A stretch of DNA of 63,872 bases, counting the filler, from Aduncisulcus paluster (Eukaryota): assembly GCA_024181965.1 (NCBI GenBank). It is 6 parts of 6 records of this genome, joined end to end, with 100 filler letters (N's around TTAATTAATTAA, not from the genome) between each part and the next. Parts side by side here need not be neighbours in the genome. Positions count along the whole stretch, not along the records: positions 13,314 to 38,045 come from BQXS01011092.1; 5 more parts are not named here. The stretch is one strand, 5' to 3'. Of this stretch, positions 8,762-60,957 are shown piece after piece (position 1 is the first letter of the stretch; the number at the start of each line of letters is the position of its first letter). Below the pieces are notes generated by a model. It did not search any database and was not told where the DNA came from. It worked only from the letters and a program-made list of their open reading frames with translations. Both the position numbers and the translations under genes were made by a program.

Positions 8762-8861
8762 NNNNNNNNNNNNNNNNNNNNNNNNNNNNNNNNNNNNNNN
8801 NNNNNTTAATTAATTAANNNNNNNNNNNNNNNNNNNNNNNNNNNNNNNNNNNNNNNNNNNN
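8762..8861. other. Artificial contig linker (N-TTAATTAATTAA-N); also at 13214-13313, 38046-38145, 56729-56828, 60858-60957
   Basis: Identical 100-bp construct with a six-frame stop cassette. Genes are cut off at each one. Confidence 0.97.
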
Positions 8862-13213: not shown

Positions 13214-13994
13214 NNNNNNNNNNNNNNNNNNNNNNNNNNNNNNNNNNNNNNNNNNNNTTAATTAATTAANNNNNNNNNNNNNNNNNNNNNNNNNNNNNNN
13301 NNNNNNNNNNNNNGGATGAATTTCCAATCGGAATTTAATTTGTATATGCTCTCAGGGGGAAAAAAGAAATGGACGGAGTGTATTGTTCCTGATGTGATGG
13401 AAACCATATTATGTTAGTTGACTCCGCTGATATCAAAACCTCTGCAGGTAGAAAAGCTTTATTGGAGAATGTTACGAGTTTATTTGTCTCAAAGAATGTG
13501 GTAGAATTTTATCGAAGACTCGAGCAATGTATAAAATGGAGAATTCTCTCACGATGGATGCGTATTTGCGATACATTTAAAACTTTAAGAGCATCTCAAA
13601 GCAATTCGAAGGGCTGGTATCTCACAAAAGAGTGTTGACCAAGTTTATCAGTGGGTTATATACTGAGTCTTTAAGAAGTGCTGTAATGGCCAGTCTGGAT
13701 GAAAAAGATAAAGAAGAGGATCTGAAAATTGGGTTGCGAGCAAGTTTATTAGTGTAAGAATATTCAAAGGGTCAGGTTCCCTGCATATCAATCTCCCTGA
13801 CATTATTTTATTTCAGTAATAACTTAAATAAAAAAAAAACATCGAAAACGCTCCAGCATTGGTTTTCATTTGAGCGATATTTGGCAAGATTAAAATCCAA
13901 TTTATGTCTCCCATCACTATACTTGATACAATCACTTACACCACCACTACTGGTCAGTAACCTCATACACTAGAGGAAGTGAAACACGTCATTC

Positions 13995-14300: not shown

Positions 14301-15964
14301 TGATAACGATTGAAAATAATGAATTGTTTACTAAGGTCATGGAAAACTCATTTCAGAGTGGAAATCAAGAAAGATCATTCTGGAAGTCAGCAACGAACTG
14401 GGACCAAGACTCGGTCGTGATCTGATCGAGAAAAGGTTGTATAATTTCCTCGGATAAAAGACGCTTTGAGATCATATAATATAATAATAGTTCAATAATA
14501 TTATTGTCGAATACTTTTTAAATCAAATTTATAAAAAAATTATTAAAATAAAACGTGACTCTTATCTAAAAATAGATCATGAGAATCTAACACTGGGGTG
14601 GATTTGCTTCCTTTCAATGTCCGGTGCTTTTACCGCACAGTTATTTCCCAAAGAAAAACTCACATCCCACCTTATACGTAAATTGAGTGAACTTAAGGTT
14701 GATAAATCTAATCTTAAGTTTTATTATTACTGATCGAGAGCCACTCATGGAGAGAGTTGCATGTGATTTAGTCGCTGAAATCAGAAGACCGGGATTTACC
14801 CCAATTCGATGGAGGTTTTCATGCCTTTTGCATAATATGGTATTTTTGCATGATTTCCAACGCAGGCTCACCAATAAGTACCAGAAAACGAGTTCGAAAA
14901 CATCTTGGGAACAAAGTTAAAGAAAGGGTGGTGTATGCTGTTCTCTTCGGCAAACACAAATGCCCAGAGAAAACCGAGTTTTTTCGGAAAAGATTGGGAG
15001 AAGAACAAGACAATATGGAGGCTACAACAGTCAAATTCTGGGCCACACACCTTTTTGGTACAAAAACAAAGATTATCAGAGAAAGAATGGAGAGAGCTTC
15101 TCTATTATGCCATATGGCATCACGGGCCATAGAATTGGCACAATTGGCAACAAAAATGCATGATAGGTTCTTAAATCAATATTTATTGGCTTGAGGTTAT
15201 TGTGGACATTATTACGAAAAGAAAAAGGGAAAGAAAAAGGACTTCACTGCACAATTGTCAACAAAAATGCCTTATAAGCTTTTAAACCAATATTCTTTTG
15301 AGGCCGTAGTGGACGTTATAACGAAAAGAGAAATGGAGAGAAAAAGGACCTCGGTATAAACGAAGAGGAAGAAAATGTGATTGATATTTGGAAGAAGAAG
15401 ATCGCCTCCAGTCCATTTTCTAACTTAAGTACTTCCATATCCGTAACAAAAGGGATTTCATATCAAATCCAGCAATATGCCAGGCGCTGGGCCGTAGCGG
15501 CGAAACGACTACAAGGAAAGATTCCGATATGTCACTTGTCGACAAGACATTTCCCAGTGAAAAACAGTCAAAAAACTAACATGCCGAAACAATTGAAAGG
15601 CAAATTAAAAGGTTCCAAAGGAAATACTCTACTACTAAAGCAAATGTACATGTCACGACTGACGGCGTTTCGGCCTCTGTGACCATTTACAGCAAGGCAG
15701 TGACAACTGGCACTGTTGGTTGTTCGGTGATTTCTTGGGATGGCCTAAACACCAAGCGACTTTCGTATTCTTGTACTAAGAATACAATTCTGATAAAACA
15801 GCCAAAAATCCATAGACCAGCTCCTTCTATTAATCAAATTTCATTTAAGCATTTATCATCAGAAGAGTACGAGAAGTGTTGGATCTTCTCACCAGTCTAT
15901 TTATAGATCACTGTTTAGCCGGCCTTTTATTAGTAAATTTGACGCAACCATTACAATATTAATA

Positions 15965-16559: not shown

Positions 16560-17100
16560 ATGACACTCTTCATCAGTGGTTATCGATCGGTAATAAATGA
16601 AGAGATATTCGATTCTTTAATCCCCAATTCAATAAATTTATCTCTTAGAAATCGGGCTAATGATTCAGTTGGGGTTGGTAAAGTTCTTTCAATCTGATCT
16701 GGGAAACACGCTAAAACCCAAGTTATGTTCCTAATTATTGTTGAAATTTTCTCATTGGCTCGAATAGTGCCTTATTTTTTTTCAGCTCGTCGTTCTTCAT
16801 AATTTCATGAGCCATTTGATTTTTGAAGGAAGTCGAATCTCTTTTTTGAATGCACCAAAATACAATTCATCCTTCTTTTTTTCAATATTAATGTAATCAA
16901 TGGCGTAAGTGCCCGTTTTGTTTTTAATAAGTATCCCTAAAAGATTTTTCCCACATGTTCGGCATTTGTCCATTATTATCGAATATTGTCCACATAATTG
17001 TGATTTAATCAATTCTTCTTTATAGGATAAAGTTACTCTATGCAGTGAATCATATAATGTCGATGGATGAAGTCTAATTGGGTCTGCGAATAAAATAATA
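16560..17100 (-). mobile_element. DNA-transposase relic (hAT-like N-terminal catalytic part)
   Basis: 'QYSIIMDKCRTCGKNLLGILI' and 'KFIELGIKESNISSFITD' resemble the first and second Asp motifs of hAT transposases. Confidence 0.4.
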
Positions 17101-20100
17101 AATTTAATCAACAAGGTAATGCTCGTGTAGCAAGGAGGAGTAAAGAGATCAGTAAGTACCTGCCACAGATTGAACGAGAATGTCTTGATGGACTTCTTGA
17201 ACTCCGTAATTCGTGGGGTGGTCCTGCTCTCAGAATTTACTCTCCTGCTTGGAAGGACGAAGCATACACGTGTGCGTGTCAGCGTGCAGACTATGCTCGA
17301 CATTGTGAAGAACTTGGCGAGAAACGTGTTGAAGTGGCCTATGGAAAGCGTAGAGCTGCTAGTCCAAAAGCTTCAGTGAATGTAATTGGTGTGAATAAGG
17401 ATCGTAGTCCTGTGAAAAGGGAAGAGCCTTCTTTGAAGAGAATGGTGCCTCTAGAACGTGAAGTTCTGCAACAAGAAGCAGAAATGTGGGCAAGTCCTTC
17501 TCCGGAACATGGACCACATATTCAAGAAGACGATGTCCAAACGATGAAGGATAAGGAAACTAATCAGATGGATAATATTATGCTGATTGATGGTGTGTTA
17601 GAACAGACTGAATGGCAGGGTCGGTCCAGTGGTACGGGTGTGACAGCTGAAAAATGGCCAATTGAGTGCCTCACTGGTGAACAACCGTTCAATGCTCGAA
17701 AGCCTGACATGGTGTCAAATTGGTACCCTGGAATCCCCAGTTGTGAGGTGGTCTATCATGAACTTGAACCAGATGGTGGTGCTTATGATTTCGACAAGAA
17801 AGTGGTTGCTGAAAACGCGAAAGTGTTGTCAGAAAAGCCTGTGGTACATTGTATGGCGATGTCTTCTGGTGATGACAAAGACTCTGGTGTTGTAACGGTT
17901 CGTGTGACGATCCTGAGCTCTGGAAGTTCGAAACAAGTGAAGTGTTTATTTGATACTGGTTCCGATATTTCCCTGATTAGTGAGTCGTGGCTCAGAAAAG
18001 TTGGTTATCGAGTTGATGGAAGCAAAGATGGAATTCCTGCTGGAAAAGCTGCTCGTCTCTTCGATAATGCTGTTGTCAAAGCTGATAAACCTTTGGTGAT
18101 AACAGTATTTGGTGGTGGTCAAGTCAAAGCAACTCATTATATTGTGTTGAAAACTCGGATAATGCGTGGTGAGGGACGAAACAAGAATCAGTATACGACT
18201 TTTTGTGGTTATATAACTTATTGGTTATCATCTTGGTTGGGAAGAGAAATTCCTTTGATCATTGGTCGTGATGGGATGTCAGTGATGAAGCTGAATCTCG
18301 ATGTGATTGACATGAGAGCTTGGCGTACATCTAGTGATCACACGAAGGAGATCGAGTCTGTGTTGAAGCAACTAACAGATAAGGTGAAATCTGGTGATAT
18401 GGTGGAGACTGATGATCAGTCAAAAGATGATAAAGTGATGGATCTTGGTGATGATCCAAGAGTTCAAGCGACTTTTCAAGTCATGGGTGACGACATTGCT
18501 GAAAAAGTGGACGACGTGGTTCGTGAAATGGAAACTGTAACTGTTAATGACATTAAGAAATTCGGGAGCTCTGTTGCAAGAGTAAACGAAACTAAATGTT
18601 ATTTGCGGTTGATAGTGGCAATGTTAAAGTCGGTTGATGGTTTATTTGGTGGGCTGGACTCATGTCCTGCGAACGTTGGGAAGTTCAGAATTGATCTGAC
18701 GAGTCCTGATGTTGTGGTAAGTGAGCCGTTTCGGAGGATAAGGCGTGACTGGGCCCAAGAGATATATCAGCAGTTGCTGGAAATGGAAAGAAAGAAGGTC
18801 ATCCGACCCAGCACGAATGAGTATCACTGTGCAACTGTGATCGTCCCAAAGAAAAACGGAAAGTTGAGGCTTTGCGTGGATTATCGTCCTCTGAACAAGG
18901 TGACAAAAGGTATGGGGCAGGTGCTTCCTGTTATTGACGATTTGTTTCAATTACTTGGTGGAACAAAATATTATGCAGTGCTTGATTTGACAAGTGGATA
19001 CTGGCAGATTGAAGTCGAAGAATCCAGTAAGAAGTTCACGAGTTTTGTGACACAATTTGGTCAATACGAGTTTAATAGACTCCCCTTTGGACTGAAGAAT
19101 GCACCCCCATTCTTTCAGGAGTGCATGAATAGGGTATTGACTGGATTGATTGGTATGGTATGCTGTGTGTATCTAGATGATATAATTGTGTTCTCTGATA
19201 CAATGATGGGGCTCTTAGTGAGTTTATTGGCGGTCTTAATAAGACTTGAACAGTTTAACTTGAAGGTTAACCTGGAAAAGACAATTATTGGTGCAAAGGA
19301 AGTCGAATTCCTTGGTTTCATGATAAGTGAAGATGGAATTCGTCGGAGTCCTAAGAAACTGGAGGCCCTGAAGAAATTCAAGAGGCTAAGAAATGTCAGT
19401 GATGTGAGAAGTTTTCTGGGGACTGCAAACTATTTGAAGAAGTTCATCCCAAAGTATGCTGAGAAAGTGAAACCACTGACAGCTATGGTGGGTAAACATG
19501 GTGTATTTAAGTGGACTGATGAAGTCAAGAAGGCCATCAGTGTAGTAACTCAAGACTTGGAGAATGGGTTGTGCCTCGAGTTCCCTCGTCCTGATGCGGA
19601 ATTGCATTTGTATACTGATGCAAGTTTATGTGGAATTGGTGGTGTGTTGGTGCAGTTCGATCCTAAGGATATAAAACGTGAAAATCCTGGTATTGTCGAA
19701 TTCCTGAGCAGGACATTGTCGGCTCAAGAGCAGAATCAGACTACGACCGAACGTGAAGCCTTAGCTGTGTTCTTCTGCATATGCAAGTGTGAGTTTCATC
19801 TTCGTGGAAGGAAATTCTGGGTGCACACTGACCATAAGAACTTGAAATGGATTCAGAACACGAAGAGTGCAAAGGTGGAAAGATGGAGAACGTACTTGAG
19901 TGACTTTGAGTTCGAACTCGAGTATATTACTGGTGCAAAGAATGTGGTGGCAGATGCGTTGTCGCGTATTGGTCATCTACCCAAACCATTGAAGCCTGGT
20001 GAAAAAGTTAAAGCTTTAAGTAATGATGAAGCTGATGCTGAGATATTGAAATGGAGACCGGAACATGTTGAAGCGAGGGCCACTCCATTGGTTGGTGAAT

Positions 20101-21869
20101 ATCCTGATATTGAAGTTCGTGATTCGATGATCACAAGAAAAGCTGGTGAAGACTTTACTCCTGTGGTAGTAACCTACTTGAAGGCTGGTGAACAATTGTT
20201 ATCTCCTGGTGCTCATGACTCTGATGAGAAATGGATTGAAAAGATCAGGAAGAGCCAAAGGAAGTATATGTCGAGCGTGGTGTTTAAAGATAAAGACGAC
20301 GATTTCTTGGCTGAAGTCGACGGTAAATTGGTGATCCCCGATAATGATCATGAATTGGTGACCGAGATCATGACTGCTGTGCATGATGACCCTCTTGCTG
20401 GTCACGTGGGTATTTCGAAGATGCTTGAAGGTATCAGAAATAATGGAATCTACATTCGAAATGCACACATTTATGCAAAGGAACATGTAGATAAGTGTTT
20501 AATTTGTCAACGACTGAGAGCTCGTTTATTGGTGAGACGAATGATGAAAAGCACTTCGAATAGTCAACCTTTTGATACTGTGGCGGTAGATACAGTTGGT
20601 CCAATCATGGTGAGTAACAGTGGAAATCGGTATTTGGTGGTTATGGTGGACATGTTTACTCGTTGGACTGAGATCGTCCCAACACAGACAAAAGAGGCTG
20701 TTGATGCAGCTCAGGCGTTGATAGATGGCATTTTCGGTCGATTTGGACTGCCGCGGGTGATCCAAAGTGATCGTGGTGGTGAATATGTCAATGGTGTAAT
20801 CCGTGAGTTGTATACTCGCTTGGGTATAACTCAGCACAAAGTGTTGGCTGCTCGTCCTCAAGCAAATGGTATGGTGGAACGTGCAAACCAAGAAGTTATC
20901 AGACATATTCGCATTGCGTTGGCAATGATTGGCTATAAAGATGACTGGGAACATGCAATTCCGATGGCCCAGTATGTTATCAATACAACAAAAAATCGAA
21001 TGACTGGTGTCTCTCCTTACGAAGCTTTATTTGGTCAAATTCACAAACCAACTCGTGGAAGCTTGTTGAAGTGGAAAGATAAGGAAGGAAAATCTGATGT
21101 TGATATTGATGATATTGGTGACGATGAACTCATGAATGAGTATGTGAAACTGTTGAAGCAGGATGTGTCTTTAATTCATTCGGTGATGAAGAAAGCAAAT
21201 GAAGAAGCAACACTGAAGCGGGATAAAAAGATAGCTCCAGCAGTTGATGCCTTCAACAAACAAGTGGAAAAACGATTAATTCATGGTGTTCAGATTGAGC
21301 GTCTTGGTGCTGACGATGGTCCTGCAAGAACACGTTTGGTGTACACTCCTGGAAGTTTTGTGATGTTAAAACCCAGAACAAAAGTATCACACAAGTTCTC
21401 GTCGAGACTTATTGGTCCTTGGTTGGTCGAGAAGCATAATGTTGAAACGGAAACATTGACTTTGCGAAACATCAATGACGACTCTGTGACCAAAGTTGCA
21501 GCTGACGTGGTGGTGCCTTTCGATGATTCTCATGCGACATGGGAAGAGATGAAAGCAGCAGCAACTATGGATAAAGAAGATTATATCGTCGAGGAAATCT
21601 TAAGCCATACACGGAATAGTGGAGGAAGATTTGCTGAGAAAGACAGATATTTATTTGAAGTGAAGTGGTTAGGTTATGACAAGACTGATATGCAGCCGTG
21701 GAATAACTTGGTGGGCAATACTAGTTTCGTTCAGTATTGTAAGAAAGACAAGAAACTTAAAGCTTTGTTTCTTGATAAGAAGAAAGGGCGTAACACACGT
21801 GGTAGAAAGAAGAAAGATTGGCAGGAAGAAGAAAGTGAAGAGACTAGTGATGAGTCTTATCGTGGTTGA
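17094..21869 (+). mobile_element. pol: Ty3/Gypsy chromovirus-type polyprotein: protease, RT, RNase H, integrase, chromodomain; gag 5' part missing
   Basis: Frame is open from 17094. LFDTGS (protease), LCVDYR/YLDD (RT), YTDAS/TDHKNL (RNase H), H-x6-H...C-x2-C, VDTVG/QSDRG/NGMVE (integrase), GPW, and YIVEEILSH..VKWLGY (chromodomain). Confidence 0.97.
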
Positions 21870-26131: not shown

Positions 26132-26764
26132 GAAACATGCAAACTGTAATCGAGAGCCTCAATGACGTATCTTTCTTCCTTACTAGCACTATTGGGCTGA
26201 CCCAGTCGCTTTCTGATCGTGTAATATGTCCATCTTCAAACAGCTTGTCCAGAGTTTCCTTGGTTATTTTCATGAGGGGTGGTGAGAGGAATGTGTCTTG
26301 CTCTTAATGGGGATCTGATCCTCATCGATGAGTGAGATTTCGTATGGTTTCAATTTAGATCCATTAAATATCTTTGGCCAAGGAGAGAAAAATATCTCCC
26401 TCTTTTTTCTTGGAGAGGATCATGGAGGGGTTTCGAAACAAAATGATTTTTGGAAGTCTTACTTATAGTTCTGCTTCCCATAATTGAAGCCAGAGAAAGA
26501 GATGGGAAAGGAAGAGAAGAGATTCTACAGTTGGCTCTATATACAACCCTAATCATTCAAAGCCTCAATAGTTTGAATCCGAGTGATGAGGAGGTCCGTC
26601 TTTGCCAATCAATCATGAGAATGAGAAACAACATCATTAGGAACCAAGGAATTGATACAACCTTGTATGTACACATGGAGGAAGCACATTATCATCAATT
26701 CATTAAAATTGGGGACCCATGCAATTAGACGAATCAGGAGATCATGCCGAGAGAAGGCAACGGT

Positions 26765-27306
26765 AAACAAAATAATTGCCCAGACTGATATAATCAAGCT
26801 TCATTGTATTCAACACAAATCTATGGTGCAGAGTGACCATGATATAACAAGATTCAGACGAAATCATTCTCACTACCTTAAGGCTTACAAAGCAGCAGTA
26901 GAAATCCATCAATTAGAAAGAACACCATTCTCCCTCACTTCCAGTCGGTTTGAATCGAGAGAGATCATTCCTTTAGTATTAAACCGAGCCGACTCAATTC
27001 ATTGGAAAAATCTTATCGGATGTCANNNNNNNNNNNNNNNNNNNNTAAACAAAATAATTGCCCAGACTGATATAATCAAGCTTCATTGTATTCAACACAA
27101 ATCTATGGTGCAGAGTTACCATGATATAACAAGATTCAGACGAAATCATTCTCACTACCTTAAGGCTTACAAAGCAGCAGTAGAAATCCATCAATTAGAA
27201 AGAACACCATTCTCCCTCACTTCCAGTCGGTTTGAATCGAGAGAGATCATTCCTTTAGTATTAAACCGAGCCGACTCAATTCATTGGAAAAATCTTATCG
27301 GATGTC
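26765..27306. other. Duplicated flanks around a 20-N scaffold gap (likewise at gaps 30164-30183, 46043-46062, 55500-55519)
   Basis: The ~200-450 bp before each gap is repeated after it, in two cases with one SNP. Typical of unmerged overlaps. Confidence 0.9.
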
Positions 27307-30617: not shown

Positions 30618-31215
30618 GTGGACAAACCAATCTTTTCTCTTGATTATCTCCATATGGAAAAGAAGGGAGTCATTTCCACATATCTAAACTTGACTCTGTT
30701 CTTTCTTCGGAGAGTTCGAAGAAGCACAGCCTACGCACTCCGCATCATGAATTGGCGTTTATCAACACTAGGACTTCCTCCAGTCCATAAAGATGATGTG
30801 AAGAACTGGGAAGGCTATCATCTTTCTCTTTTCCTGCACTTATCTCCGCTGATATTAGGATATTTGGTCTGTAACCCAAAGGTATTGGAATTGTGGGATA
30901 CTACAGAATACTACATGTGGTCCCTATTTAAGCTCAAAGATATATCTCATGCGATGGTTATTGAAAAAATTATCAAGAAAAGTCGACGGATATTTCTAGA
31001 GCTCCATCAAGAAAGATATGCAATGGAATTGGAATTTGGAGAAGAAATAACTCCATTAATTAAGTCTCTCATGCTCCATTCCTTTGCGGCTCATCTTGTT
31101 GATCAATTTTGGCTCCATGGTGGTCTCCAGTTGGGGGGGATACAAGCATGTTCGAATCCAAACATCGCGAAGTGTCAACCCTCATTCGGAGCACATCAAG
31201 CCAAGGGGATACAAT
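30618..31215 (+). mobile_element. CACTA/CMC-like (EnSpm/Plavaka-type) transposase C-terminal relic
   Basis: 'KNWEGYHLSLFLHLSPLIL..LHSFAAHLVDQFWLHGGL', then a frameshift in the G-run at ~31133-31139 into 'DTSMFESKHREV' (catalytic-Glu-like block). Confidence 0.5.
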
Positions 31216-31229
31216 GGAACGTATGAAAC

Positions 31230-31380
31230 GACTACGTATATCATCCTCAACAATGCCAAGATCCATCACATGGGTGATGCCATCTTTTTGGCTGAGTCGC
31301 TGAACATTGTGTTAATCTTCCTTCCAGCCTATTGTCCGTTTCTAACCCCAATAGAATACATGTTCAGTTCCATTGAGTGA
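31230..31380 (+). mobile_element. Tc1/IS630 DDE_3 relic (second Asp to Glu region)
   Basis: 'YIILNNAKIHH...IFLPAYCPFLTPIEYMFSSIE' is a degenerate DNA..H / P.YSP.LNPIE. Confidence 0.75.
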
Positions 31381-31833
31381 AATGGCTCATCATACGAGAG
31401 TTGATTCCATCTATGCACAACAAAGAGTAGGAGCTTTGATGCATTACTGTTTTCTTATTATAAAAGTGTTCCATATTGTAAGAGATTAGAGAATGATTGA
31501 TTAGAAATAACCTTATATATCAATCAATTTTAGCTCAAATTACAGTACAAGATGATTCTTGTGGGGAAGATTTCCTCTACATCGGAGGATATCTGATCTG
31601 TGTTGTAGCTGATTCTCCCCAAAGGGCAAAGAATGGAACGGCAACTAACATCCCAAGGTGGATCTCATCTATATCGTCTCTGTTCAGCAACAGGGAGGGA
31701 TCTTCTGTACGGAATCCCAGGGACCAGAGTAGAAGTCAGCTCAAAGACGACTTAATTTGGGATGAAAGATTGGCCTTTGATTCAGTATTTCACCAGGTAC
31801 CAGATGTGATGCATCCTGAGACTTGAGAAACAT

Positions 31834-32493
31834 ATGTTGGAATTCCTTGAGCTTATTCTCCCAAGGGACAAACTTGTTGTTCTGAAGGGAAGATGTAAGG
31901 AAGCAAAGATAGAATATCCAATCTCTGGGTCATCAGCAACAAGGCTAAAGAAGTTCCTCGTCTGGTTTGGAGAGAAAGAAACCAGTTTAATCTCAAAAAG
32001 GAGAATTCAGACTCTTCTTTCTAAAGCAGAGAGAAGCTTTCGAGGGAAAACTCAACGAGATGAGGAAAAACTCCTAATAGAAGAGTCTTTGAGTGTGATG
32101 AAGATTCACATGGAAGTTGGGGTTCGGAAATGTTTTTCATTATATGCTAAATATATTGGAAAACTTCCATACGTTTCAAACGTTCTAGCAGTGGATGAGA
32201 TTCTTCCCTTATTAACTGAACATAGGAAGTTCTTTGTTCCACTTTGGTGGATGTTCAGAGAAGGGGAAAGTAATGTTGAACGGAACCCAATTACTTTGTC
32301 TTCATCCATTCATAACTCACTTGCACTATATTGTGCTGAGTTATGGATCTCCAATACTGACACAGCCAGCTTTGAACGAGCCAACAAAAGACCCAAGAGA
32401 GTGATTGGTTCTGTTCGAACTGTTAGTGTTGATAGAGGAAGATGCAGATACCTCAAGACATCTTTCTGTTACTGGCGATCATCATCTTTCTGA
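31834..32493 (+). mobile_element. Possible second CMC-like transposase C-terminal relic
   Basis: 'IHNSLALY..NTDTASFERANKRPK' echoes the 'DTSMFESKH' block of the 30618 relic. Confidence 0.35.
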
Positions 32494-32605
32494 TATCTCG
32501 AGACCTCTTTCCGTCTATAGCACATGGGTGCCACTCTAGACCATACTCAAGCAAAAATATGGTGTCAAAGCGCTTGTCTGGACAGATTGGTATTGTCCTA
32601 ACGAA

Positions 32606-33454
32606 TTGTTTGGCCAACTGTTGCACAGGGAAAGGGAAAATAATTTAAGTGAAATAAGATCGTTAAGAGGAAGAGAAAGTAGAATATCAATAACTTCGGT
32701 TCATGAACATGATGTTGTAACTAGTTCGGAAATTACATTGGAAATGGATTTCGGAGCCATTTTAGGTCCAGATTATGCGGAAACTAATGTGCAAGAGACT
32801 GAGGTTCAGGCTCAAGTTGAGGACCTTATCCCTATTTCAGGATATTGTATTCCTCATAGCGCTGCTGCCCATGATGATACAGCAAATGGATATTTGTATT
32901 TTGATGACGTCTTTGCATTTATATGTGACGAAAAACAGCGGAATCTAAATCTAAACATGAAAAGCTGTACATCACGGCACCCATGTGTTTGCTGTTGCTC
33001 TGATCTCATTAGTGACCCTACCGCACTAGGATGTGAACGAACTCCAACCACCCATACTGTTGACACAGGAAAGAAAGGCCCGCCATTGTTTCCTCATGAG
33101 TCATCACAACTGTCATCATTTCAACTATTCAAACATCAAACGTTTGATATTCTACACAGTTGTTACAAATCCCAAGTTTTACGGTCTTTGAACGCCCTTT
33201 TTGATCGAGTGGTTTCAAAAATGGGATATACTGCAATATATTCCATTCTTTACGAGAGGATCCTGGAGGGGTTTGAGACAAAGAAGTTTTTGGAGTTTCT
33301 GCTTATCTTCAATCTGCCATTGGTCGAAAGTGAGCAGAGAAGGTGTCATATCGACGACAAGAAGTTTGTATTGGACATTTCTATCTTCACCACCCTTGTC
33401 ATATATGGAATGAATGACGATTCAGTAACTCATGAGAAAGTTGCATTCATCTAA
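32606..33454 (+). mobile_element. CACTA/CMC-like transposase core relic
   Basis: 'AFICDEKQRNLNLNMKSCTSRHPCVCC' (D...C-x2-C) followed by 'FDILH', the D / CxxC / D-x-H arrangement of CMC-type transposases. Confidence 0.5.
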
Positions 33455-33486
33455 GGAGTTATGAGAATTATTTGAAAAGAGAATAA

Positions 33487-34850
33487 TTGAAATTGTATAT
33501 AAAGATGATTACAGTCTTTACAAATTTCAGTGTGAATGCCACTCTACATCCTTTTCCAAACACCTATAAAAATCTTTTAGATGACCGCAAAGAAATGTTA
33601 ATAGATAGATTGAATTACATTATAACCGAAGAATATCGAGCCAAAATAGCGAGAAAAAGGCCAGAATATCCCTCAAAGCGATTAGTAGACGATGTTAGAT
33701 TTTGGATGGAAAAGACCTATGGAATGACTATGGAAGGAGACGCGTCTGATGAACAAATGATTACAGAAATTATACACCAATTAATTATTGAAGAAGATGA
33801 AAAAAGGAAACAAGAAGAAGAGGAAGAGAGAATTAGAATTATTCAAGGTGGAGGAGAAGTTGAGGTGCCCGTACTCCCATTTTCTGGCCTCAGTGCTCAC
33901 TTGATTACTGAGGCCAGAAAATGGGAGGTAAATGCCCTCCAAACATTTATAAGGAGGGTAAAAAGGGAATTTGGGATGAATGTATATAAGTTTTCCCCTG
34001 AAATGGGTGAAAAGTTAAAAAAAAGGTCCCGGCGGATTCCTAAGAACTGCCTCTCTCTTCCTCCACTAAATTAAGATACGTTACTGTTAATACTAATAGA
34101 TTATCAAAAATAGTGGGGGAAGAGGGGAAAATTGTCCTAAAAAAACAAAGGAAGAGACTCCTACGGAAATACGCCATAAAATCATTCAAGAAACAGACAT
34201 CAGTTTCCACTGATGGTGTCAGTGTTTCCATTACGAATTACGTAACGGGATTACTCCTTGAACTTCAAGTTGGTTTTGAAAACCAACAAAACGGTAACCT
34301 ACAGAGCATAAAAATGAGATATCCCACCAGGACGAAGAAATTCATGCTCATAGGGTTGGACCCCGGGAGGGTAATGCAATTTGGGGTGGCATTGTTGGAA
34401 TGGGATGGCTGCAGCTTCCAAAAGACACTTTCTTCGGATAAAAAGGGAGCATTCCTCCTGAAAAAACCCAAGTGGTTTATGGGAGTTGCAGCCGATGAGG
34501 AGGATGCTCATATAATCCCTATGAAAACCGGCCCCGATGTAAGATTCAATTTTTCAAAGTCGAAGGCCAAAATTAGGTTTGAAAACCACCAAAGAAAATT
34601 GTCCCATATGCAAAAATTTGCCTCTAAACTGAGTTCTGAGGCTAAAACAAGATGTGGTCCGTGTCAGTGTTTCCATCACAAATTACGTGGTGGGATTAAT
34701 ACACTGTAAGGGAAAAAAACAACTTGTTGAACTGAGTGGCCCACTACCGAGCATCAAAATGAAATATCACACTAGCACTAAGAAATTCGCGCTCATTGGT
34801 TTGGATCTTGGGAGCGTAATGGAATTTGGGGTGGCATTATTGCAATGGGT
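33487..34850 (+). pseudogene. Fanzor1-like RNA-guided nuclease relic (frameshift at ~34040, truncated before RuvC-II) with a tandem partial duplicate
   Basis: Motifs in order: 'SGLSAHLITEARKWEVN..F', 'LPLSSSTKLRYVTVNT', 'STDGVSVSI' (34209), 'LIGLDPGR' (Asp 34359), 'KAKIRFENHQRKLSHMQKFASKL'. A second copy 'VSVSITNY..LIGLDLG' lies at 34654-34850. Confidence 0.68.
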
Positions 34851-35908
34851 CGTATGTGTAGGGGTTAATACCCTGCGATCTTACGCTTCTAGTATATCCG
34901 ACACAGATTATTTTCTTCCATACATCCAATTGCCTCAGACTACGTATATGTACAATACGGTAACTCACTCACCAAATATATCCACAAACTGAAACTTTCT
35001 TGACATCCTGTTATTTAGATATTTAAACCATGTATGTCTTGCCCACCCACCCACCCTACATACATGACTTTTGAAGTTTCTAGAGTCCAACAACTTTTTG
35101 AATCACTAATCCAAACTCACATGAAGCACTAAACCAAACTCACATCGCTCTCTCTCTCAGATATCAGGAAAATATCAAAGAAGAACCCCAAGACTCGAGA
35201 GAAAGTTTACTGCTGCAAAAACAAGATCCCAAATTAACCAGAGCAAATCGATTAATTAATCAACCAACCGACAGTGATGAATTGTATCTATTAATATCAG
35301 AAAAAAGGGGGATAAACAACGATGGAATCTTCTTTGATATCACACGTGTATCCACTCGTGCTTCTAAACATTCTATCCTTCAGAGCCTCAGCAGAGACAT
35401 GCAGAAGATCGGACTTTGACTTTAATTGAATGATTGAACTGGAATCTGTACCGTCTGACATGTCCTTCATGGACCTGGAAGATGATTCTTCAGAAACTCC
35501 AGAAACAACATGAGATGTCGTGTGAGAAAAGTCAAGTTTGGGGATAAAAACTGTATATTGAACACTCGTTTGTGAACCTTTACGGGATAGTCGGATCACA
35601 TGTGACACGATAATAAAGAAACTAACTGTTCCGTCATAGTTATTTCCATTTTTAGGGAAGTAACTATGTTCTGATGATCAAAGGAATGGCGAGGAATATA
35701 TATTTTCATTTGGTTTGACCAGGGATAGGAAAAGGCATGGATATTCGAGACGAAGAGGATGAGTTGGCAGAGAAGGGTGGAACTTCTGAACAGATATTAC
35801 TAATATATAATATAATCATTAGTAACGATTGTGGAAGGAAGATTGGCCAGACATGAAGGGACTGTTTTGGCTGGGTTTTATTCCATATCAATCACACAAA
35901 TATCACAA

Positions 35909-38045: not shown

Positions 38046-38145
38046 NNNNNNNNNNNNNNNNNNNNNNNNNNNNNNNNNNNNNNNNNNNNTTAATTAATTA
38101 ANNNNNNNNNNNNNNNNNNNNNNNNNNNNNNNNNNNNNNNNNNNN

Positions 38146-56723: not shown

Positions 56724-56828
56724 GGTTGNNNNNNNNNNNNNNNNNNNNNNNNNNNNNNNNNNNNNNNNNNNNTTAATTAATTAANNNNNNNNNNNNNNNN
56801 NNNNNNNNNNNNNNNNNNNNNNNNNNNN

Positions 56829-58590: not shown

Positions 58591-58900
58591 CTTAAAACCT
58601 CACGAAAATGCTGATTTGATTTTCAGAGAGAAAATATGCGGCAAAGATATATAATTCAATCTATTTCTGATTTAACACGAAATAAGAAGGCATAAATATA
58701 TTAATAAACTTTGATATATATAGAAATCTATGTGATAATTAGAGTCGATCTCTTCCCGGCTCATTTAGCTGAAGGGGAGAAAACATTTATCTGAATCAAC
58801 ATTAACATACCATCAACACCTACTTTATTCCCACAAACCTCGAACTTACAATCAAATAGAAAATCGGACCAAGAATTTCGATTTGCACACCAAATTTCAA

Positions 58901-60857
58901 ATGAATGAACTCGTAACTCAGGCGATAGAGCTGAGTCAAAAGGAAAGGGCAGCATTTGAAATGGCTTCAAGCGCTGCAATATCCCAAAATCCCGAAGAAT
59001 TGGGAAAAGACTTCGAAATCCTTCGTACTCGTTGTCTTGGGGTTATAGAGGAGAAAGATATCATAATATCTTCATATAAATCCGCATTGACGACTAAAGA
59101 TGATGAATATGTAACATTAATACGAAAGAATCAAGAAGCTATTAAAGAAGCATATAAAGGAACCAGAGAAACCATTTTGAAAACGATTGCAAAGTTTAAG
59201 GAAGATTTAAAAGATTTAGAAGAAGAATTAGAGAGAAATCGTATTAAAGTTATGAAGGAACAAAGTGATCAGATTACCAGTCTATTGAAGAAAAGGGATG
59301 AGTTAGAAGACAAATTTTTAGAACAACAAAAAACTGGAGTATCTGAGTTCCATGATAAATATCACCAAAAAACAATAGAAGAAGCTGAAGAGTATTCCAT
59401 AGCCAAAATTGAATTAACAACCCAATTAGCCTCTCTTGAGCAGGAATTGGAGAGAATCCGTGGTGTCTATACTCTCAATGCTGAGAAACTTCAATATAAT
59501 TATCGTATTCTTAAGACTCGTGATCATGACAATGCTATTGTGATTGCCCAACAAAAGAAGAAGATTGCCAGGATTCGTGATCTCCTCTCTGAGTTAACAT
59601 CACGTCACAAGAAAGCTGAGCATAATTTCAAGCATACCAACGCACAACTCACATCGGAGTACAGAGCTCTCACCGGACACTTGAGAACTGTCCAAACCAA
59701 GCTACGTTTCTTTGAAAAAGCTGATGCCATCCGTTTCGAAGAAGTGTGGGCCCTTCACGAGGAGAATGTAGCCTCTCTTCTCGAGAAACTTATAGCTGCC
59801 GATCAGAGTATCTCAGAACATGTATTAGGCTATTCTTGGATTCCACCCCACATTCCTGCCTTAAGACCTGAAGGAGTGGGCAAAATGAGGAAAGAACGTA
59901 TTCAGATGTTGGCCAAAGCAGGAAGGAAAGATGGGTCTGATAAAGCTGAGGGATCAGGCTCTGTTAATGTGCTTGGTGCCAACCATATCTTTGCTTCCTC
60001 TTCATACCATCCAAACCTGTGTGCCGCTTTGTGTAGAGCTATCTTACAAGAGGCTGGTTTCCTGTCATTTGATAAGCTCAGTGGTGTTCTCCCTTCTGGT
60101 GATAAAGAGAAAGATGGTGAGAAAAGTTTGCTGGAAGAAGAATTAGAGAAAGAGAAAGAGAAAGAAAAGGACAGTAAGTTGGGTGGAGATAAGAATGCTG
60201 ATAAATTGAGCGATGTTCTTGCTCAACTCGGTGCTGGTCTCCCCAATTCCTCCTCTGAAGTCTTCCAGAAGAAGGTTAGCAGTATGCTCAGTGTGCTTGG
60301 TGTTGTCGATGGGAATGGATTTGACGCATTGGTGGCTCACATCACGACTTCTCCGCCACAAGTTCCCGAAGAAGTGAAAGAGATGGAAAGAAGAGAGGAA
60401 GAGTTGAGAAAGAAGCGTGAAAGGAGAGAAAGACGGCGTCAGAGAGAAGAAGAAGGTTGGTACGATGAAGAGGAAGAGGAAGAGGAAGAAGAAGAGGAAG
60501 AGGAGGAAGAGGAGGAAGAGGAAGAAGCCACAGTCGAATCTGGAGTTTCCTCCATGTCTGTCTGTGTAGATGCTCTTTGTGCAGAGGCTGTACATGCCGT
60601 CTTGATCCCTAAGGTTGATCTCGTGAAGAAATTAGGTGTCTTTGTCCGTGAGCAGGCCAGAATCACTGCCACAGAGGCTAGACAAGCTGCGCGACAGGCT
60701 GAGGTCCAGGCTAGACGCGATGAAGCACAATTCTGGGACGATTTAGGGTCTGTAATCCCCGATGGAAAAGTGAGAGTGTGGAAATCACTTGAATCTGGAC
60801 TACAAAAACATTTATTGACTCTCCAGGCTCGTGCTAAGCTTGTTGAAGAAAATGAGA
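58901..60857 (+). CDS. DRC1: Dynein regulatory complex protein 1 (CCDC164)-like; start uncertain, 3'-truncated
   Basis: 'LEQELERIRGVYTLNAEKLQYNYRILKTRD..N..IAQQKKKI' and 'FW..L..VIP..KVRVW..LE..L'. Frame is open from 58769. Confidence 0.82.
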
Positions 60858-60957
60858 NNNNNNNNNNNNNNNNNNNNNNNNNNNNNNNNNNNNNNNNNNN
60901 NTTAATTAATTAANNNNNNNNNNNNNNNNNNNNNNNNNNNNNNNNNNNNNNNNNNNN

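Follow-up and report, generated by a model that had tools for sequence, protein, structure and literature searches.

A probable Fanzor1 pseudogene fragment in a transposon-rich region of the Aduncisulcus paluster genome

Within the TnpB/OMEGA family of RNA-guided RuvC endonucleases, Fanzor1 proteins make up the branch found in eukaryotes and giant viruses. They ride on DNA transposons, and the guide (omega) RNA of Fanzor systems comes from the 3' end of the open reading frame (ORF) or from beyond it. In this work, we describe a stretch of 63,872 nucleotides from Aduncisulcus paluster (assembly GCA_024181965.1), called here the window, in which positions 33505-34881 very probably represent a fragment of a Fanzor1 pseudogene. 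Judged by its sequence, this copy should be able neither to bind a guide RNA nor to cut DNA. A decayed and non-functional member of the Fanzor1 family had been proposed at this place in an earlier note, made from the DNA alone and without database searches, and the proposal is now supported by 125 collinear profile columns, a break in the reading frame, and the absence of the C-terminal half. The core of the fragment is homologous to Fanzor1, and several copies of the same family are present.

All coordinates refer to the whole stretch. The ORF sets used below are the six-frame ORFs of the window (n = 1460) and those of at least 100 amino acids (n = 79). The features of the main locus, and of a second fragment in the same window, are as follows.

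33487-34074, plus strand: upstream ORF piece (P0001, 189 amino acids; first Met at 33505, stop codon at 34072-34074), from ORF reading
33874-33927, no strand: DNA palindrome in the upstream ORF with a 21-bp perfect stem and a 12-nt loop, from repeat and fold computation
~33886-33948, plus strand: G-L-S...A-R-K-W...N...F, in the frame of ORF 33487-34074
34017-34043, plus strand: frame break, consisting of an A8 run (34017-34024) followed by a TAA stop codon in the downstream frame (34041-34043), read from the sequence
34044-34709, plus strand: downstream ORF (P0002, 221 amino acids), in a different frame from P0001
34047-34427, plus strand: core homologous to Fanzor1, reaching from the end of REC through the C-terminal part of WED to RuvC-I, from hhalign and a hidden Markov model (HMM)
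34047-34094, plus strand: LPLSSSTKLRYVTVNT (LPL...YVTVNT block), in the frame of ORF 34044-34709
34209-34232, plus strand: TDGVSVSI, in the frame of ORF 34044-34709
34350-34370, plus strand: IGLDPGR, in the frame of ORF 34044-34709
34569-34631, plus strand: KIRFENHQRK..QKFASKL, in the frame of ORF 34044-34709; IRFENHQRK... may be what remains of the arginine-rich helix that follows RuvC-I, from a weak HMM match
34633-34992, plus strand: third-frame ORF (P0003), which comes after P0002
34661-34881, plus strand: partial direct duplicate of 34216-34436 (VSVSITNY...IGLDLG...), in the third frame
15302-15903, plus strand: second decayed fragment of the same family, in three collinear pieces and two frames

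The five motifs claimed in the earlier note all lie on the plus strand and in the order given there. Their residues are correct, but the dot counts in two of the patterns are off by 1-2 residues, so those patterns should be taken as schematic. The frameshift that had been placed near 34040 corresponds to a real change of frame in the window, located between the A8 run and the stop codon at 34041-34043. Contigs of two public sequencing runs, which come from one sample and contain ~80% of the sampled words, were compared with the window. Across 34032-34788 they are identical to it. The break itself reads differently in them, with A>G at 34018 and an additional AA after 34026, at all the depth present there. 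When this contig state is applied to the window, the ORFs of P0001 and P0002 are still out of frame. Further upstream, at 33300-33540, the only contigs found show several substitutions and small deletions relative to the window, again at all depth; the cause might be variation between alleles or paralogues, or a local assembly error in the window.

Probable descent of the fragment from Fanzor1

The family was reached through a back-translated pattern (DG..VS, a gap of 103-133 nt, and hhGhDPG), which was scanned over 2.9 million viral contigs. Ten loci were obtained, eight of them with out-of-frame spacing or stop codons and two in frame. Both in-frame loci are intact ORFs, of 626 and 650 amino acids, from giant-virus bins, and they read ...NTDGKTVSV...LIGIDPG... 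and ...KTDGYSVSI...LIGVDPG.... Their C-termini have the form ...NTSKKC..C...C..C...RDING... and contain Pfam PF07282 (Cas12f1-like TNB domain), and one of them, P0006, matches the Guillardia theta Fanzor1 in PDB (E-value 1.3e-6). Relatives of these viral ORFs were gathered into an alignment of 34 sequences (A3), in which the T of TDG is invariant and the D and G of TDG, as well as the D and P of DPG, are nearly so. This alignment matches three solved Fanzor1 proteins, which identifies the family as Fanzor1:

Parasitella parasitica Fanzor1 (9cf0): E-value 2.1e-93
Spizellomyces punctatus Fanzor1 (SpuFz1, 8gkh): E-value 1.1e-89
Guillardia theta Fanzor1 (9cer): E-value 4.9e-82

The signatures 'TDG.sVS' and 'GxDPG', which the earlier note had given as typical of Fanzor1, are nearly invariant columns of this family. 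A weak lead to it came from an embedding search of a protein atlas, carried out before any motif had been selected, in which ranks 1-3 (score 0.96) were taken by clusters of short fungal hypothetical proteins, 11-21% of their members with DUF8286. Because PF26935/DUF8286 is also found in 29 of 35 relatives of the viral ORFs in a protein collection, the atlas lead is tied to the same family. The PLR...IDT, TDGxSVS, and hhGhDPG blocks are probably what Pfam DUF8286 models. A literature search found no paper naming PF26935/DUF8286, and the Pfam copy used in this work apparently does not contain the family, as it was not reported on P0007, though P0029, which is 84% identical, carries it precomputed.

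Aligned to A3 with hhalign, P0002 gives a probability of 91.2% and an E-value of 1e-6 over 125 collinear columns (query 2-128, profile 252-401). When the three window fragments are used as a query profile, these values become 93.8% and 1.7e-7, and the probability against a larger family profile is 94.1%. Three blocks are involved in the alignment. At the end of REC, LPLSSSTKLRYVTVNT aligns to the block PLR...I.IDT upstream of the WED block, weakly when taken alone and with its Arg residues replaced. In WED, TDGVSVSI aligns to 'TDGvSvSi' and is located 41 residues before RuvC-I (40-50 in the family). In RuvC-I, LIGLDPGR aligns to the 'vgvDPGk' columns, and the Asp encoded at 34359-34361 is aligned with the catalytic Asp of RuvC-I.

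The fragment also stands out from the rest of the window. With a 39-sequence HMM run with filters off over the 1460 ORFs, ORF 34044-34706 ranks first (E-value 4.1e-5) and 15580-15903, part of the second fragment, ranks second (0.028), while the remaining ORFs lie at an E-value of 1.2 or worse. In an hhalign comparison over the 79 longer ORFs, the main fragment scores 50.3 and the second fragment 26.5, with the best unrelated ORF at 20.7, and the maximum among 60 full shuffles of the main fragment is 21.5. Shuffles that preserve the motifs score higher, with a mean of 34.0 and a standard deviation of 6.9, and one of 100 reaches the real 50.3. When both motifs are masked with X, the best alignment still places LPL...YVTVNT on 'PlR..I.idt' (query 2-28, profile 252-278, P 0.079), and residues 1-55 alone give P 0.022. 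This block lies outside the pattern used for the scan.

The specificity of the motif pair can be judged from a metagenome scan, which gave 70 loci: 51 with in-frame spacing, 44 open between the motifs, and 32 with at least 150 amino acids after DPG. An HMM built from Fanzor1 C-terminal columns only is matched by 27 of these 32 ORFs, a count that overstates their independence since several of the contigs are near-identical. T precedes DG in all 27 matching ORFs, the same as in the window, and the five misses are without it; a Pfam scan of four of these misses revealed two reprolysin-like peptidases, one repeat protein, and one ORF with no family. By this comparison, the motif pair is diagnostic of Fanzor1. 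Eight of the metagenome contigs (L011, L024, L025, L027, L052, L058, L059, and L079) carry Fanzor1 ORFs with VSTDGVSVSI, which includes the same octapeptide as in the window. These ORFs begin only 35-63 amino acids ahead of the motif, a hint of introns or breaks, and have ~31% identity over 74 amino acids to the window fragment. A word-indexed search for longer proteins found none, and a pattern search for close relatives produced 98 metagenome and 28 viral contig matches, none of which was confirmed.

Correspondence with solved structures, lost parts, and further copies

Chain P of 8gkh (8gkh_P) is a maltose-binding protein (MBP) fusion, with an offset of 394 to SpuFz1 numbering that was checked on K312, R315, R317, Y345, R268, S269, R291, and R407. 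In this numbering, the three blocks fall at the following places.

SpuFz1 265-269: PLRRS, in REC
SpuFz1 328-330: TDG, in WED, between R317 and Y345
SpuFz1 383: Asp of IDPN, in RuvC-I (D383)

On alignment, the recognisable part of the fragment, from the last helix and strand of REC through the C-terminal half of WED to the first strand of RuvC, is equivalent to approximately SpuFz1 265-400. SpuFz1 (8gkh) and the Parasitella (9cf0) and Guillardia (9cer) proteins have the three blocks in the same order and with the same spacing as the fragment. A passage of Saito et al. (2023, PMC10432273) describes R268 and S269 of SpuFz1 as contacting the guide-target duplex, and D383 as a magnesium ligand of the RuvC site. 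R267 and R268 in REC of SpuFz1 are replaced by Ser in the fragment (LPLSSS vs. PLRRS).

In contrast to the solved Fanzor1 proteins, the fragment keeps ~130 of ~640 residues in recognisable form. Compared with SpuFz1, it is without RuvC-II (E541), the TNB zinc finger, and RuvC-III (D606); it also has no guide-RNA region, is frameshifted and partly duplicated, and its N-terminal 189 amino acids are dissimilar. The earlier note had already remarked that RuvC-II, the zinc finger, and RuvC-III are missing, and an HMM of the C-terminal columns run over the window agrees with it. An HMM of the N-terminal columns, run over all frames of the window, gave a best E-value of 0.81 at an unrelated place. 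From the family motif D-X(125,275)-[TS][TS]-X-X-C4-X(5,50)-RD, as it is given in a passage of Bao and Jurka (2013, PMC3627910), the fragment retains the first Asp only. What is common to the fragment, prokaryotic TnpB (IS200/IS605 and IS607), and Cas12 is, via Fanzor1, the WED-RuvC core with its first-strand Asp. The intact relatives of the fragment share PF07282 with prokaryotic TnpB, whereas the fragment itself is without direct similarity to the TnpB models in Pfam or NCBIfam.

The bridge or basic helix claimed in the earlier note is present as a sequence, but its correspondence with the YT..QR block (R407 in SpuFz1) is weak and remains consistent with such a helix rather than established. 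Its best local match is to HMM columns 392-400 ('lryTakqrr'), in a collinear position, with -1.5 bits and an E-value of 0.028 for a single sequence, and its distance from DPG exceeds that in the Fanzor1 family by ~50 residues. The cysteines that follow (C..C.C at 34653-34670, at the end of ORF 34044-34709) belong to the duplicate read in the wrong frame, so this Cys-rich end of P0002 is not a zinc finger.

At the DNA level, 34661-34849 directly repeats 34216-34404, with a period of 445 and an identity of 83-87%. At the protein level, the duplicate reaches 34881 (55.6% identity over 81 amino acids, E-value 1e-17), and hhalign places it at profile columns 373-386. Within the duplicate, TDG is no longer intact and DLG stands in place of DPG. 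The second fragment, 15302-15903, is tied to the main locus by similarity (E-value 2.6e-4) and lies ~18 kb from it; it keeps TTDGVSASV, and its GLDPG-bearing stretch is deleted. In addition, one run contig is ~91% identical to 34032-34173 and then jumps to 34812; it is a further, paralogous copy that has been deleted differently. Altogether, there are at least three Fanzor1-type fragments within 64 kb, plus one paralogous contig in the reads.

Residues ~95-189 of P0001 are collinear with the second fragment (window 15302-15679), and ~33790-34040 of the upstream ORF is the part common to both; P0001 therefore belongs to the same repeat family. The upstream ORF presumably descends, in diverged form, from the N-terminal part of the gene that also gave rise to the core, and the N-terminal halves of Fanzor proteins are called highly variable in a passage of Bao and Jurka (2013, PMC3627910). 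P0001 gave no match in PDB. The pattern 'GLS..L..A...N..F', the first motif listed in the earlier note, is not supported as a part of Fanzor1: it is located in a stretch without detectable Fanzor1 similarity, and part of it is a DNA palindrome. The arms of this palindrome are 26 nt long and 92% complementary, one encoding PFSGLS and the other TEARKW. It folds at -25.2 kcal/mol (z -8.8), and none of 200 shuffles folds equally well. The palindrome was not found in the second fragment (~15.4 kb).

Weighing of the explanations and meaning of the fragment

The ancestor of the fragment would have been a transposon-borne, guide-RNA-directed RuvC nuclease, active at its time. Three changes disabled this copy, in an order that is only presumed: the break of the frame in the A8 run near 34020, the partial duplication with its period of 445 bp, and the loss of everything downstream, including the RuvC-II Glu, the TNB zinc finger, the RuvC-III Asp, and the 3' guide-RNA region. 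With these parts lost, neither guide-RNA binding nor DNA cutting would be expected. The second fragment and the paralogous contig would then point to a small and old family of Fanzor1-bearing elements that decayed in a transposon-rich region.

A number of results weigh against the assignment to Fanzor1. In Pfam, with E-values up to 10, the fragment gave only a trace of DUF460 (residues 88-124, E-value 0.045), below the cut-off. NCBIfam gave nothing, and PDB returned chance kinase matches by sequence and none by the three-fragment profile. Among 1.84 billion representatives, phmmer recovered only the window's own 111-amino acid ORF and a tandem-repeat protein, which on inspection was spurious. 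The protein-atlas lead is weak, since its recognition value of 2268 is just below the mark of 2300. No Fanzor1 similarity is seen for P0001 by itself, as a two-row profile, or against the larger profile, and the result is the same when it is read through the break with X. Over the 1460 six-frame ORFs, the HMM of C-terminal columns reached a best E-value of 0.2, at an unrelated place; by this HMM, the RuvC-II Glu is absent from the window, as is the TNB zinc finger ([TS][TS]-x-x-C4), for which there is no PF07282 match either, and the RuvC-III 'RD.N' is also absent from the window. Pairwise identity to the recovered Fanzor1 sequences is 21-35% over 72-139 amino acids. As the family was found by a pattern from the fragment itself, the alignment score is partly high by construction, and the share that does not come from the motifs is modest (z ~2.4). 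The AlphaFold check that the earlier note had asked for did not help: the AlphaFold2 model of P0002, made from a three-row alignment, has a mean pLDDT (predicted local distance difference test) of 31.8 with every residue below 50, which made it unusable, and it was discarded.

The blank direct searches, with DUF460 as the sole Pfam trace, could be taken to mean that the motifs co-occur by chance, or that they are the remnant of another RNase H-fold protein, for example, a Holliday-junction resolvase, which likewise starts with hhGhDPG; the motif pair without its leading T is indeed seen in unrelated bacterial proteins, and five of the 32 metagenome ORFs are missed by the C-terminal HMM. We consider this very unlikely, as there are three collinear motifs with family-typical spacing, one of them outside the selection pattern, and the stretch ranks first of 1460 ORFs. 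An independent second fragment in the window is found by the same HMM, and all 27 metagenome ORFs with a full TDG are Fanzor1. A better score for another RNase H-fold family, named in the earlier note as the outcome that would speak for a different origin, was not observed: no RuvC/Cce1-type resolvase family appeared in Pfam at E-values up to 10, and no such match was found in PDB. Viral transfer concerns only the origin of the fragment and is compatible with a Fanzor1 pseudogene. The fragment might have arrived in an endogenised giant-virus segment instead of a cellular DNA transposon, given that its first intact relatives come from giant-virus metagenome bins and that viral spread of Fanzors is proposed in a passage of Bao and Jurka (2013, PMC3627910). 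This route seems unlikely, since no viral gene is seen around either fragment, where the neighbours are Ty3/gypsy, DDE_3, and unassignable ORFs, and since the viral ORFs (23-33% identity) are no closer to the fragment than other Fanzor1 sequences are.

It would be most improbable, in our view, that the gene is still alive, with the break being an assembly error or a tiny intron and the locus encoding a truncated, domesticated REC/WED nucleic-acid binder without nuclease activity. The break does lie at a homopolymer, exactly where the run contigs disagree with the window, the 111-amino acid ORF of the locus is recorded as a predicted protein, and introns occur in Fanzor genes according to a passage of Jiang et al. 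(2023, PMC10530073). However, both the window state and the contig state leave the ORFs in different frames, and the reading frame runs into a scrambled partial duplicate in the third frame. Key residues have decayed (LPLSSS for PLRRS, and DLG within the duplicated part), the breaks in the second fragment are of other kinds, and the neighbourhood consists of other transposon fragments.

Taken as a Fanzor1 pseudogene, the fragment is an added example of a known family and is inert by itself. It records a past multiplication of Fanzor1-bearing elements in the genome of a flagellate, and, with the mapping of Fanzor hosts still under way, it adds a useful record. Should the host be a metamonad, which the earlier note held to be probable, Fanzor1 would be placed in a eukaryotic supergroup that is not mentioned in the Fanzor papers that could be searched. 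In the full-text literature, excluding the supplementary host tables of the surveys, nothing paired fanzor with metamonad, and fanzor with trichomonas led only to a single, unrelated paper. It is conceivable, though rather doubtful, that the fragments are what is left of a strongly diverged Fanzor1 lineage belonging to the host itself, whose intact, guide-RNA-programmed members survive elsewhere in the genome or in sister species; such a lineage would have no phmmer relative among the 1.84 billion representatives and an N-terminus unlike that of the recovered Fanzor1 proteins.

The signature PLR...IDT, TDGxSVS, and hhGhDPG can flag dead copies that have no C-terminal half. One Fanzor survey used ORFs of more than 100 residues and hmmsearch, with profiles that are unnamed in the methods passage (PMC10530073). 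We assume that the conserved C-terminal half is what these profiles are built on; if so, relics of this kind would be missed, and past Fanzor activity may be undercounted.

Genomic surroundings and host

The part of the window between 14 and 35 kb is rich in transposon debris, and broken ORFs without a family assignment occupy much of what remains there. The assigned neighbours, together with one host gene further along the window, are listed below.

17094-21869, plus strand: uninterrupted Ty3/gypsy polyprotein ORF of 1591 amino acids, with RVT_1, RT RNase H, integrase zinc-binding, and rve domains
31060-31377, plus strand: fragment of a Tc1/mariner-type DDE_3 transposase (Pfam E-value 1.3e-8, 35.2 bits against a cut-off of 28.6)
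58769-60853, plus strand: homologue of dynein regulatory complex protein 1 (DRC1), matching a chain of PDB 7ju4 with an E-value of 1e-55

The Ty3/gypsy ORF is apparently intact and may belong to a young or active long terminal repeat retrotransposon. The DDE_3 fragment is located 2.1 kb upstream of the Fanzor1 fragment and on the same strand. Capture of Fanzor1 by Mariner and other transposons is described in a passage of Bao and Jurka (PMC3627910). No convincing terminal inverted repeats were found around the region, and none that would link DDE_3 to the Fanzor1 fragment. The neighbouring ORFs 31810-32493 and 32540-33454 match no family. The C-terminal end of the latter (304 amino acids) has a decayed paralogue at 26429-26623 (tblastx E-value 2e-7), and the repeat family formed by these two matched nothing in Pfam or PDB.

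The presence of a DRC1 homologue indicates that the host is a flagellated eukaryote, which builds motile flagella. The best match of this homologue is a Chlamydomonas chain, and a protein-atlas search leads to animal clusters. The host sequence has long uninterrupted ORFs and ~38% G+C. Several long ORFs of the window are interrupted by five pairs of 44-N runs with exactly 12 bases between the two runs. These pairs are located at 8762-8861, 13214-13313, 38046-38145, 56729-56828, and 60858-60957, and four runs of 20 N occur at 27026, 30164, 46043, and 55500; all of them look like masking or scaffolding gaps.

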